A DNA stretch of 64,000 nt. It comes from a candidate division WWE3 bacterium. Its GTDB lineage: Bacteria > Patescibacteriota > WWE3 > UBA101185 > UBA10185. The stretch lies in assembly GCA_052035175.1 (NCBI GenBank), contig JBPOHV010000001.1, positions 772,228 to 836,227 of the forward strand, given 5' to 3'. Of this stretch, positions 53,058 to 62,278 are shown in pieces. The translations under genes and the position numbers were made by a program. The stretch's first letter is position 1, and each line of letters starts with the position of its first letter. The notes under the pieces are model-generated. The model ran no database searches. It saw only the letters and a program-made list of their open reading frames with translations, and was not told where the DNA came from.

Positions 53058-53562
53058 AAAGGGCTAGGCCCGGCTTAGCCTTATTCTAAGTTTCTTAGAA
53101 TTTACAATGTTGTCACAACTAGAAAAGTAAATATTATAACCTATATGCCACAACGGAATGTCAAAAAAGTATACCTACCAAACAGCTTTTATCACATATA
53201 CAATCGAGGTGTAGAAAAAAGAGTGATTTTTAATAGTCAAATGGACTTAAATGTATTTGAAAAATATCTTACAGATAGCTTGCTTAAAAACAATATTAAA
53301 ATTTATGAAAAAGCCTTCATGCCAAACCATTATCACTTACTAGTTTTTCAAAAAGAGGCACATGCTATTGAAAAAATGATGCACTCACTTGGTACTAGAT
53401 ATACTATCTACTTCAATATTAGGCATAACAGAACTGGACACTTATTCCAAGGAACCTATAGAGCAAGACTGGTGAATACTGATGGCGATTTTCAAGCGGT
53501 TACAATGTATATAAGAAATCATTACGTAGAAGATGAGGAGGCTAAGCCGGGCCTAGCCCTTT
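53058..53562 (+). mobile_element. RAYT/IS200-like unit 2, flanked by a perfect 23-bp inverted repeat.
   Basis: aaagggctaggcccggcttagcc (53058-53080) and its exact reverse complement ggctaagccgggcctagcccttt (53540-53562). Each arm is itself an imperfect palindrome: ggctaggcc-c-ggcttagcc. Confidence 0.75.
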
Positions 53563-53567
53563 GGTAG
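53145..53567 (+). CDS. RAYT / IS200-like Y1 HuH transposase, paralogue 2.
   Basis: 140 aa. FYHIYNRGVEKR...PNHYHLLVF...GHLFQGTYRARLV. The C-terminal KPGLALW* is encoded by the right REP. Confidence 0.75.
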   Translation: MPQRNVKKVYLPNSFYHIYNRGVEKRVIFNSQMDLNVFEKYLTDSLLKNNIKIYEKAFMPNHYHLLVFQKEAHAIEKMMHSLGTRYTIYFNIRHNRTGHLFQGTYRARLVNTDGDFQAVTMYIRNHYVEDEEAKPGLALW

Positions 53568-53577
53568 TTTGGTAACA

Positions 53578-53715
53578 CTGTCCCGGCGACGACCTATCTT
53601 CCCAGGCATTCTGCCAAGTATTTTCAGCGCTGACGGTCTTGACTTCTCTGTTCGGAATGGACCTCGCCGAAGCGAGTTAAGAGGTATAACCCCGCCGCTA
53701 TCATCACCGAGACAG
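53578..53715 (-). rRNA. rrf: 5S rRNA (with an extra hairpin insertion of about 18 nt).
   Basis: The reverse complement contains ...GGTGATGATAGCGGCGGGG...CCGAACAGAGAAGTCAAGACCGTCAGCGCTG... Helix I is ctgtctcgg paired with ccgggacag. The inserted ctcgcttcggcgag is a UUCG-capped stem. Confidence 0.7.
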
Positions 53716-53784
53716 TATTACCAATAAAGTGTGCTCATTTTGAAATAAACACACTAAAAACTGAATAGAAGACTGTAGTTAGAA

Positions 53785-59290: not shown

Positions 59291-60061
59291 CTAAATCCCT
59301 AAAAAATTCATAACCAAAAACCTTACAACCAACGGACCCATTCCACCAGGTGACGTCGCTACCAGACCCAAATGTGCTGTTTTGCTAGTCAGATCAAAAT
59401 CACCAACAGTTTTCCCATTAACCACACTAGAACCAAAATCTACAACACAAGTGTTTTCAGACAACATATCCCCCTTTATCAACGATGGTATTCCCGCAGC
59501 ACAAACAACTAAATCTGTATGTATAAAGGTACCCGAACTATAATTATTAACTGTATTAACAACCACGTTATTATCTTTTAAAAAGTTTGTTACTGGTAAT
59601 CCAACTAAAGCCCCATCGCCAATTACAGTAGCTGATTTTATCCTATCACAGCAACTATGAAACAAAGAAAAAGCACGTATAACCGGAGATATAAATTTAT
59701 TAGTTTTTTTGTTTAAAGCGTCAATATCCTTTTCTTCAGGTATTAAGTCTATTAAGGAGTACAAACTTTGTCTTGGCAAAGGCATTTGTATGATCAACCC
59801 AGTAATTTTTGTGTCACCCATTATTTTTTTGCACTCAGAAATTATTTCAACATCTGCCAATGCACTGGAAATCCTGAATATATGACAATCTATGCCTAAC
59901 TTAAAGCAAAGGCTTTGTTTCAAAGATATATATTTATCTGAAACCTGATTCTCACCTATTTGTATGATTCCAAGAATTCCAATATTCTTAGAATTTTCTA
60001 AGAATTTAGACATTGATAAGTCTAGTAAGTCTTTATATTTTTGTGTTGGAAATAAATTCAT
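59291..60061 (-). CDS. folD: Bifunctional methylenetetrahydrofolate dehydrogenase/cyclohydrolase.
   Basis: ATVIGDGALVGLPVTNFL...DLVVCAAGIPSLIKGDML...VVDFG...VGDFD...SPGGMGPLVVRFLVMN. Confidence 0.8.
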   Translation of the reverse strand: MNLFPTQKYKDLLDLSMSKFLENSKNIGILGIIQIGENQVSDKYISLKQSLCFKLGIDCHIFRISSALADVEIISECKKIMGDTKITGLIIQMPLPRQSLYSLIDLIPEEKDIDALNKKTNKFISPVIRAFSLFHSCCDRIKSATVIGDGALVGLPVTNFLKDNNVVVNTVNNYSSGTFIHTDLVVCAAGIPSLIKGDMLSENTCVVDFGSSVVNGKTVGDFDLTSKTAHLGLVATSPGGMGPLVVRFLVMNFLGI

Positions 60062-60099
60062 ACAAAGCCTATTTTAGCACTTAAGAGTGATAAAATTGC

Positions 60100-60591
60100 T
60101 TGAGCTTGTTTATGAAAAATAAATTAGAAAAGTTAAATCGAACTAAATTTGTTGTATTAATGACTTTCTTGGCCTTTTTATTGAAAGTTCTGGCATACTT
60201 TATTGCCAATATAATATTTGGTATTTGGCAAAATCCCACTCTAGAAAAACTTATTCAAGATACAAATGTACAACCTAACATCATGACTTTGATAATCTCT
60301 GGAATCATAATTGCACCAATTATTGAAACGGTTGTTGGACAACTTATACCTATCAAAATAACCAGCCTTTTCACAAAAAAGACTAGCATCAACCTGATTA
60401 TATCTGTAATAGTATTTTCTGGATTACACGACTACAGTAATATCCTCACAGGAATTGGCGTAGGTACAATACTCGCATACTCATATCTATTAAAACTAAA
60501 AATTTCTGAAAAAGAAGCCTTTTTTACAACTACTGCAATACACCTATTACATAATCTTATCGCAGTAATCTTATTAATAATATTTATGTGA
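60100..60591 (+). CDS. CPBP-family (CAAX protease / Abi-like) intramembrane metalloprotease.
   Basis: Polytopic, 163 aa. FSGLHD (FxxxH) and HLLHNL (HxxxN) motifs. The EExxxR motif is degenerate (IIETVVGQ). Confidence 0.5.
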   Translation: MSLFMKNKLEKLNRTKFVVLMTFLAFLLKVLAYFIANIIFGIWQNPTLEKLIQDTNVQPNIMTLIISGIIIAPIIETVVGQLIPIKITSLFTKKTSINLIISVIVFSGLHDYSNILTGIGVGTILAYSYLLKLKISEKEAFFTTTAIHLLHNLIAVILLIIFM

Positions 60592-60837
60592 GTGAATTTA
60601 CAAACTGAATCGAAACCTTTAACACAAGAAGAACACTTCGTGCGGAAATTTTTTCTTACTTGCGCAAGAAAGCTTACTTCCAAACTTATCCTTTGCTAAG
60701 CGTAAGGGCAAAGCAATTTATGAGATATGTTCTTAGGATTATCTGAACATAAATTGTATGATCATATTTCGTTGAGCTTCCCCACCGAAGCAGAGCAAGA
60801 CATCAACAAGCAAACATACGTGTTTTTCTCCATTAGA

Positions 60838-62278
60838 AAGGAGGTGATCCAGCCGCAGATTCCCCTACGGCTACCTTGTTACGACTTCATCCTCATCACT
60901 GATTCCACCTTGGGCCCATAACTAGATGAGACTTCGGGTGGCCCCAGCTTTGTTGATGTGACGGGCAGTGTGTGCAAGACCCGAGAACGTATTCACCGGC
61001 GTATAGCTGACCGCCGATTACTAGCGATTCCAACTTCATGAAGGCGAATTGCAGCCTTCAATCCGAACTGAGACGCGTTTTAAGAGATTTGCTTGCAGTC
61101 ACCTGTTCGCTCCTCGCTGTACGCGCCATTGTAGCATGCTTCTAGCCCTAGGCATAAGGGCAATACTGACTTGACGTCATCCCCACCTTCCTCCTCGTTG
61201 CCGAGGCAGTTCCGCTAGAGTGATACAACTAACGGTAAGGGTTGCGCTCGTTAACCCACTTAAGGGTACGCCTCACGGTACGAGCTTACGACAGCCATGC
61301 AACACCTGTGTAGCACCCTCGAAGGATTTCCACCTTTCGGTAGATTTGCAGCTACATGTCAAGCCTAGGTAAGGTTTTCGGGTTATCATCCAATTAAAGA
61401 ACATGCTCCACCGCTTGTGCGGGTCCCCGCCAATTCCTTTGAGTTTTAGTCTTGCGACCGTACTTCCCAGGCGGCCTGCTTAACGCGTTAGCTTCGACAC
61501 TCCACCGAAGCGGAGCATCTAGCAGGCATCGTTTACAGCTAGGACTACACGGGTATCTAATCCGTTTCGCTCCCCTAGCTTTCGTCTCTTAGCGTCAGGA
61601 CGACCCCAAACAGCTGGCTTCCCCCTTGGTGTTCCCTATGAGATCAACGCATTTCACTGCTCCTCCATAAGTTCCGCTGTTCCCTAGTCGCCTCAAGTAA
61701 TGCAGTATCAAAAGCAGACTCTCGGTTGGGCCGAGAGATTTAACCTCTGACTTACAAAACCGCCTACAGAACTCTTTACGCCCAATAAATCCGGATAACG
61801 CTTGCACCCTACGTATGACCGCTGCTGCTGGCACGTAGTTAGCCGGTGCTATTTTCAGGAGTTTACAACCCGAAGGCCTTCATCCCCCATGCGGCGTCGC
61901 TGCATCAGACTTTCGTCCATTGTGCAATATTCCTCACTGCTGCCTTCCGTAGAAGTAGGGCCCGTGTCTCAGTGCCCTTCTGACTGATCATCCTCTCAGA
62001 CCAGTTACCCGTCATAGGCTTGGTAGGCATTTACCCCACCAACTACCTGATAGGCCGCAGGCTCATCTCCCACCGGAATCCCACCGAAGTGGAAAACCTT
62101 TACTCTTGCGAGACCATCTGGAATTAGCAAAGATTTCTCTAAGTTATGCCAGTGAAGGAGGTAGATTCCTACGTGTTATTCAGCCGTTTGCCATGCCCCA
62201 CCGAAGTGGAGCATTCGACTTGCATGTTTTAGGCACGCCGCTAGCGTTCATCCTGAGCTAGGATCAAACTCTCAAAAA
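60838..62278 (-). rRNA. rrs: 16S rRNA.
   Basis: 3' end: reverse complement of 60838-60888 gives GAAGTCGTAACAAGGTAGCCGTAGGGGAATCTGCGGCTGGATCACCTCCTT. 5' end: reverse complement of 62225-62271 gives AGAGTTTGATCCTAGCTCAGGATGAACGCTAGCGGCGTGCCTAAAACATGCAAGTCGAATGC. About 1.44 kb. Confidence 0.9.

Follow-up and report, generated by a model that had tools for sequence, protein, structure and literature searches.

How does a ribosomal RNA locus come to have its 16S gene about 4 kb away from those for 23S and 5S, its spacer tRNA-Ile turned onto the opposite strand, and transposase-like genes placed against the 3′ ends of its stable RNAs? The question is raised by a 64-kb stretch of contig JBPOHV010000001.1 from a candidate division WWE3 bacterium (the window in the following; all coordinates are window positions). 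In the canonical operon, 16S, tRNA-Ile, tRNA-Ala, 23S, and 5S are contiguous and co-oriented; here, tRNA-Ile is flipped and four protein genes occupy the spacer. A preliminary description attributed this state to the repetitive extragenic palindromic (REP) sequences and REP-associated tyrosine transposases (RAYTs) of the region. The evidence presented below points, with high confidence, to the normal inherited rRNA layout of a WWE3-like lineage of the Patescibacteria, or Candidate Phyla Radiation (CPR), and not to a recent accident. Because relatives without RAYTs have the same layout, the split is viewed as an old trait and not as a recent RAYT-driven break. The organism itself belongs to the CPR bacteria of small genome size, and none of its close relatives has been sequenced.

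On the minus strand are found successively the 16S rRNA gene (60837–62279, 1,443 nt; Rfam SSU_rRNA_bacteria, 1379 bits, full model), tRNA-Ala(TGC) (57009–57084; ARAGORN and Rfam), the 23S rRNA gene (53793–56856; Rfam LSU_rRNA_bacteria, 2487 bits), the 5S rRNA gene (53581–53711; Rfam 5S_rRNA, 52 bits), and the gene for ribosomal protein S1 (51869–52969, with four Pfam S1 matches and its real start at 52969), a conserved neighbor downstream from 5S. The tRNA-Ile(GAT) (58706–58782; ARAGORN, with 67.7 bits in Rfam) is on the plus strand, opposite to the rRNA genes. RNA genes were located with Rfam and tRNAs with ARAGORN, and both agree with the strands first assigned, with coordinate differences of a few bases. 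The 16S–23S distance is 3,980 bp (60837 minus 56856). Between 16S and tRNA-Ala one finds, in this order, a 163-amino acid (aa) membrane open reading frame (ORF) (plus strand), folD (minus), a Y1_Tnp gene (minus), tRNA-Ile (plus), and a 375-aa ORF (minus). A second Y1_Tnp gene is located between 5S and the S1 gene and a third one 6 kb beyond.

Related loci were collected in two ways. When the S1 gene was taken as an anchor and each species was represented by a single genome, the top three matches were L009, L010, and L011; a 38-nt signature common to the 16S 3′ ends of the window and of L009 gave 38 further metagenome loci. The metagenome loci were annotated with the window rRNAs, ARAGORN, and tblastn. 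In the resulting 41 rRNA loci, 16S is 81%–87% identical to that of the window, and a single locus, L009, is labelled WWE3 (a metagenome-assembled genome with S1 58% and 16S 81% identical to the window). In L009, 16S is followed, after 421 nt, by tRNA-Ile on the opposite strand and, after another 849 nt, by tRNA-Ala-23S. The order and orientation of tRNA-Ala-23S-5S-S1 in L009, L010, and L011 are those of the window; ClpC comes after S1 in L009 and L099, and S1 alone after 5S in L010 and L011. Over the metagenome loci and L009, tRNA-Ile is inverted in 24 of the 25 loci having a tRNA-Ile downstream from 16S. In the related loci with tRNA-Ile, the 16S/tRNA-Ile spacer extends over 322–3,464 nt and the tRNA-Ile/tRNA-Ala spacer over 192–4,865 nt. 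The succession 16S, inverted tRNA-Ile, tRNA-Ala-23S-5S-S1-ClpC is collinear between the window and its relatives (L009, L099), and in a rough 16S neighbor-joining tree the inverted state extends across the whole clade, with the window nested inside.

While the skeleton is conserved, the contents of the spacers vary with the lineage. No homolog of the RAYTs, of folD, or of the 375-aa gene is present in the rRNA loci of any of the 41 relatives. CofD/YvcK-like, GT2 glycosyltransferase, and NUDIX genes are encountered repeatedly; many other ORFs are seen a single time. A CofD/YvcK-family gene (about 333 aa, Pfam E = 7e-91) is found on the rRNA strand in the tRNA-Ile/tRNA-Ala spacer, directly upstream of tRNA-Ala-23S, in ten relatives (L095, L100, L102, L108, L110, L111, L113, L114, L116, and L125); the orphan 375-aa gene of the window holds that same position. 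A NUDIX gene comes after 16S in six loci, and GT2 genes are found in seven.

Some of the loci collected have peculiarities of their own. Insertions inside 16S are known for CPR, and in L101 and L121 the 16S gene spans about 2,083 nt for model positions 210–1443, which implies that some 650 nt are inserted within the gene; in both, more than 5 kb after 16S contain neither tRNA-Ile nor 23S. In L010, on a CPR chromosome of 945 kb, ARAGORN finds upstream of 23S, between tRNA-Val and tRNA-Ala, a tRNA with a four-base anticodon (tcca) at positions 5916–5989 (Rfam tRNA score of 67 bits).

An inherited division of the operon raises the point of how its parts are expressed. The locus most likely runs as three units, namely, the 16S gene, the opposite-strand tRNA-Ile, and the group tRNA-Ala-23S-5S, since a near-consensus promoter-like site is present upstream of tRNA-Ala and since 16S and 23S each have their own predicted leader–trailer stems. 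The candidate sigma-70-type promoter (57324–57352, minus; TTGACA-17-TATTAT, a match of 11/12) sits between the 375-aa gene and tRNA-Ala and is the top match in a scan of 10.5 kb of the region. Of 18 relatives, 9 carry a match of at least 11/12 in the 300 nt that precede tRNA-Ala (8 of them with a perfect TTGACA-16-TATAAT) and 14 carry one of at least 10/12, against a background of 0.8% and 2.6%, respectively, in random 300-nt windows of the same loci.

The 23S leader region (56886–56983, minus) is predicted to form a duplex with the 23S trailer arm and 23S–5S spacer (53712–53792, minus), with a core inverted repeat between 56905–56929 and 53747–53771; its energy is −61.8 kcal/mol vs. −31 ± 4 kcal/mol for shuffled trailers. 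The preliminary description had argued that a detached 23S-5S would need a promoter and processing signals of its own, and candidates for both are indeed in place. For 16S, the leader arm of a putative processing stem (62280–62312, minus) is complementary over 14 + 18 bp to a trailer arm (60605–60637, minus) some 200 nt past the 3′ end of 16S. This stem was not significant in a duplex search with a short trailer and appeared when the trailer was widened. In most of 22 relatives checked, 16S stems of 14–23 bp can form, with the trailer arm usually 180–300 nt downstream. Since 16S and its upstream neighbor are divergent, the 16S promoter must be within about 190 nt. A terminator-like hairpin is present on the minus strand after folD, where a REP is followed by a T-rich tail.

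From these elements we infer the following course of events. The canonical 16S-Ile-Ala-23S-5S operon would have split well before the divergence from the relatives at 81%–87% 16S identity, leaving (i) 16S with its own leader–trailer stem, the trailer arm lying some 200 nt beyond the gene; (ii) a tRNA-Ile(GAT) that converges on 16S from the opposite strand; and (iii) tRNA-Ala-23S-5S behind its own strong sigma-70-type promoter and with the 23S stem, followed by S1 and ClpC. The two spacers, on either side of tRNA-Ile, would tolerate insertions and hold different protein genes from lineage to lineage: in this genome, the CPBP-like gene, folD, and RAYT unit 3 between 16S and tRNA-Ile, and the orphan 375-aa gene between tRNA-Ile and tRNA-Ala. 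The RAYT units, of about 0.5 kb each, would be later and lineage-specific insertions into noncoding DNA, just past tRNA-Ile and 5S on their 3′ sides, and were probably the cause of neither the split nor the inversion of tRNA-Ile.

The RAYT-like units themselves deserve a closer description. In unit 3, the Y1 transposase gene (RAYT3; 58784–59227, minus; probable start at 59206, 140 aa; Pfam Y1_Tnp, E = 1.9e-12) is framed by two palindromic inverted-repeat arms, one on the folD side (59266–59296) that overlaps the folD stop codon and one on the tRNA-Ile side (58782–58812) that encodes the C terminus of RAYT3 and overlaps the last base of tRNA-Ile. Unit 2 (53056–53567, plus) comprises REPs at 53056–53081 and 53539–53564 and the RAYT2 ORF at 53145–53567. 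The third paralog, RAYT1 (unit 46570–47115, minus; gene 46570–46977), adjoins no known RNA gene. Each of the three Y1 genes is flanked by its own inverted pair of palindromes, as in RAYT systems, and the HUH motif and catalytic tyrosine can be read in the translations as HYH(L/I)L and Y(I)(R/K)NH. All three proteins have a Pfam Y1_Tnp match, with E about 2e-12 in units 2 and 3. With the NCBIfam model REP_Tyr_transpos (NF047646), the three proteins score 34.4, 34.2, and 19.9 bits (34 for RAYT3), below the cut-off of 80. They are short (135–140 aa), with the C terminus encoded by the REP itself, and their closest homologs outside this genome, at most 48% identical, are common in Microgenomates-type CPR and mostly 220–235 aa long. 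Among themselves, the paralogs are 46%–58% identical (58% for RAYT2 vs. RAYT3). Beyond the flanking pairs, no further REP copy of any of the three types is present in the 64-kb window; shuffles of the window lead one to expect no copy of the unit 2 and unit 3 palindromes.

The contacts of these units with the RNA genes are close, and the distances noted earlier are correct within a few bases. A single base separates the CCA end of tRNA-Ile (58782) from the RAYT3 stop codon (58784), and unit 3 starts within about 4 nt of that CCA end, where relatives have unrelated sequence. Some 13 nt lie between the RAYT2 stop (53567) and the 3′ end of 5S (53581). Unit 2 appears as a clean insertion of about 509 bp (53056–53564) in the 5S–S1 spacer, which without it measures about 102 nt vs. 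about 105 nt in L009 (5S end at 9892, S1 start at 9998); a TATAATCCCC box upstream of S1 is common to the window, L009, and L099. At this junction, the −35 region of the S1 promoter is replaced by the RAYT2 insertion, and the remaining extended −10 element (TGCTATAAT; 53042–53050, minus) lies directly beside the REP.

An ortholog of RAYT1 is found at the same locus of a related organism, in L142 (positions 233–1781; assembly GCA_020049755.1), with 86% nucleotide identity over 1.56 kb, 90% amino acid identity, and conserved palindromes. RAYT1 thus behaves as a domesticated and vertically inherited RAYT and not as an active insertion sequence. Next to it, about 270 nt (46300–46572, plus) contain no ORF and no Rfam family, scans by Rfam E-value beside RAYT1 giving nothing credible; the sequence is conserved in L142. 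This stretch ends with a hairpin (46507–46560) and a T-run that abut the 3′ REP of RAYT1; a small RNA or other transcript, as yet unannotated and running convergently to RAYT1, may terminate here.

Several observations weigh against an inherited layout. The relatives were chosen by a common 38-nt 16S signature and several are near-duplicates, so that the 24 inverted cases out of 25 represent about 14 independent architectures and not 24. In a single locus, L124, tRNA-Ile is co-oriented; this looks like a secondary reversal. With 16S identities of 81%–87%, the nearest full relatives are too distant to order or time the insertions of folD, the CPBP-like gene, the 375-aa gene, and the RAYTs. The promoters and stems of the locus are predictions, and promoter scans upstream of tRNA-Ile and of 16S gave only weak, near-background matches. 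Finally, of the three RAYT units, two have the 3′ end of a stable RNA no more than about 15 nt away, which seems above chance placement and is left unexplained by an inherited layout.

That last point has a parallel outside the genome. The nearest outside RAYT homolog with a context (P0123, 185 aa; L127, 3802–4642, also in L128–L130) lies between two opposite-strand tRNA-Met(CAT) genes, and 11 nt separate its stop codon from one of these tRNAs, at the 3′ end of the latter. Thus, two of the three window units and this homolog end about 1–13 nt from a convergent stable-RNA 3′ end: tRNA-Ile with a gap of 1 nt, 5S with about 13 nt, and tRNA-Met with 11 nt. Of the three outside contexts, one is between tRNA-Met genes and two are without a tRNA nearby, too few to judge a preference for RNA genes. 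Two further readings may be envisaged, although we consider them rather unlikely: either the RAYT-like units of these CPR bacteria are targeted to, or selectively retained at, the DNA directly 3′ of stable RNA genes, or the clade-wide inverted tRNA-Ile is functional. In the first case, the REP hairpins would constitute a terminator or 3′-end structure of those RNAs; in the second, the inverted tRNA-Ile would act as a convergent roadblock or insulator that enforces the separate transcription of 16S and 23S-5S.

Another way of giving the RAYTs a role, without having them break the operon, is to restrict their action to the enlargement of the locus in this lineage, for example with folD and the CPBP-like gene brought in as a block through a REP breakpoint beside tRNA-Ile. 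In favor of this, the block fits exactly into the interval from the conserved 16S trailer stem to the 3′ end of tRNA-Ile, and the arms of unit 3 overlap the folD stop codon and the last tRNA-Ile base. In addition, folD (59291–60061, minus; Pfam THF_DHG_CYH and THF_DHG_CYH_C) is found at another locus in WWE3 relatives, adjoining secE-nusG-L11-L1 and away from the rRNA genes. On the other hand, other genes occupy these spacers in relatives that have no RAYT, so that spacer turnover can do without one; within the 64 kb, each REP type is present only as the flanking pair of its own RAYT, with no partner REP site seen; and RAYT1 is stably inherited at its own locus. A contribution of this kind is therefore held to be doubtful.

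The protein genes of the spacers otherwise appear as lineage-specific contents. The best homologs of folD are at most 48% identical and belong to candidate division WWE3 and other Patescibacteria; as a synteny anchor folD was discarded, these homologs being placed by secE-nusG-L11-L1 and uninformative on their rRNA loci. As for the spacer contents given in the preliminary description, folD, RAYT unit 3, tRNA-Ile, and the 375-aa gene stand; its label of CPBP protease for the 163-aa ORF (60100–60591, plus) can be kept only loosely. This degenerate, CPBP-like membrane ORF has no match in Pfam, even at E ≤ 1 (PF02517 being the family expected for CPBP), or in NCBIfam. It does align pairwise with an Rce1-like protein of WWE3 (E = 2e-4), and motifs 2 and 3 (FxxxH and HxxxN) are intact, with motif 1, EE..R (EExxxR), degenerated into ET..Q (ETVVGQ).

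The 375-aa gene (57500–58627, minus), in the tRNA-Ile/tRNA-Ala spacer, has a GC content of 42.5% vs. 37.5% for the window. A protein search through 5.8 billion proteins returned only the protein itself, and an exhaustive HMMER search gave one orthologous fragment (87% nucleotide identity), on the short contig L141, of assembly GCA_020049755.1 like L142, with a different downstream gene, and four weak relatives. The family (P0239–P0243) is sparse and fast-evolving, with a repeated module “YP.PV.F ... PEK..EY ... YG.R.EY” and a conserved “HAHLFGPL” motif at the C terminus.

It could also be that the genes, despite the distance, still form one operon, with transcription from the 16S promoter reading through folD, RAYT3, and the 375-aa gene into tRNA-Ala-23S-5S. 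All genes between 16S and 23S are indeed on the minus strand, with the exception of the 163-aa ORF and tRNA-Ile. But these two form convergent units in the path of the polymerase, folD has behind it a REP hairpin and a T-rich tail, the predicted processing stem of 16S is already closed some 230 nt past the gene, and a strong and conserved promoter-like site precedes tRNA-Ala. A single transcript is improbable under these conditions, and separate units are preferred.

The break model of the preliminary description, in which REP/RAYT recombination or insertion disrupted a contiguous operon in this very lineage and flipped tRNA-Ile, draws on the REP of unit 3 abutting the tRNA-Ile 3′ end, the REP of unit 2 some 13 nt from the 5S 3′ end, and the opposite orientations of RAYT2 and RAYT3, which have stretches of 123 nt and 72 nt in common at 72%–75% identity. 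Synteny with relatives had been set beforehand as the test that could refute a RAYT origin. The same unlinked layout is found in relatives without RAYTs, the split and the inverted tRNA-Ile occurring together in 24 of 25 loci, none with a RAYT, and the proposal has to be abandoned as very improbable. Moreover, the paralogs, with 46%–58% protein identity, are too diverged for recent homologous recombination. An exchange between RAYT2 and RAYT3 inverting the segment from 5S to tRNA-Ile was considered separately and ruled out: it would flip 5S-23S-Ala relative to 16S and S1, and the order and orientation of 16S...Ala-23S-5S-S1-ClpC are the same in the window, L009, and L099.

Lastly, rRNA loci are often misassembled in metagenome-assembled genomes, and the 4-kb insert or the inverted tRNA-Ile could in principle result from contigs misjoined at conserved rRNA sequence, but this is barely conceivable here, since dozens of unrelated assemblies show the same anchor order and an independently assembled Logan contig (L001, SRR34217543, 4,666 bp) is 100% identical to window positions 56224–60887, from 630 nt inside 23S, across the spacer, to 50 nt inside 16S. 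The locus as first described is in that respect genuine.

Elsewhere in the window, three ORFs (34646–35752, 39796–40587, and 40902–41282, all minus) have GC contents of 53%–59%, against 37.5% for the genome. The product of the first has a signal peptide and linkers rich in Pro and Thr. None of the three has a Pfam match, and neither GC-rich patch has an Rfam match. Situated inside a run of ORFs without Pfam matches (34–48 kb), they look like recently acquired foreign genes.

The inherited layout has some practical consequences. What seems a broken rRNA operon in a CPR genome would be a stable architecture with its own regulatory signals and would not attest to recent damage by mobile elements. 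For this clade, long-amplicon methods that span 16S, the internal transcribed spacer, and 23S, as well as binning based on the operon, would fail or mislead. The conserved inverted tRNA-Ile and the tRNA-Ala promoter could be used as synteny markers, and the variable spacers would record gene turnover beside those genes that a minimal genome transcribes most.

How do these elements compare with known systems? RAYTs, or TnpA_REP proteins, are reportedly accompanied by flanking REPs in the REPIN–RAYT systems of E. coli and Pseudomonas. The window units resemble them in the Y1 HUH fold, in the single gene between inverted palindromes, and in the presence of several diverged paralogs, each with its own repeat type; for one unit, RAYT1, inheritance is in addition stable, a relative having it at the same locus. 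They differ in the absence of dispersed REPs or REPINs from the 64 kb, in their scores below the NCBIfam cut-off, in the short proteins with a REP-encoded C terminus, and in their CPR host. With the IS200/IS605 insertion sequences they have in common the Y1 transposase and the hairpins at the element ends. However, the copies in the window are 46%–58% identical, whereas near-identical copies characterize such elements, and there is no tnpB; the ends of a unit are inverted repeats of each other and not distinct left and right hairpins, and the contexts are stable across samples.

Separate transcription units for 16S and 23S-5S, with independent promoters, are described for Rickettsiales, Buchnera, Thermus, and Helicobacter, mostly with reduced genomes (as cited in 10.1101/705046 and PMC8172020). 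In those bacteria the parts are usually tens to hundreds of kilobases apart, whereas here they are still neighbors at a distance of 4 kb, sharing a strand and a conserved order.

The closest correspondence is with the unlinked rRNA genes of CPR. According to Brewer et al. (bioRxiv 10.1101/705046; ISME J 2020), unlinked rRNA genes, more than 1,500 bp apart from 16S 3′ end to 23S 5′ end, are common and phylogenetically conserved in Patescibacteria; the 3,980 bp of the window are well beyond that distance. In Lui et al. (2021; PMC8172020), 27 of 34 circularized CPR genomes are unlinked, tRNAs, protein genes, and opposite-strand genes are found in the spacers, and 16S–23S distances of 2.9–9 kb are given for Microgenomatia in a table that contains no WWE3 genome. 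With the 163-aa ORF and tRNA-Ile on the plus strand between 16S and 23S on the minus strand, the window corresponds to their type D. The likeness thus extends to a 16S more than 1.5–2 kb from 23S-5S, to spacers with tRNAs and protein genes including opposite-strand ones, to a small genome (925 kb), and to the character of a clade-specific trait. Distinct from what the two reports, as far as consulted, describe is the clade pattern of an inverted tRNA-Ile convergent with 16S and a tRNA-Ala kept with 23S behind a consensus promoter. We did not find these clade details in the literature consulted, and they refine an already known phenomenon.

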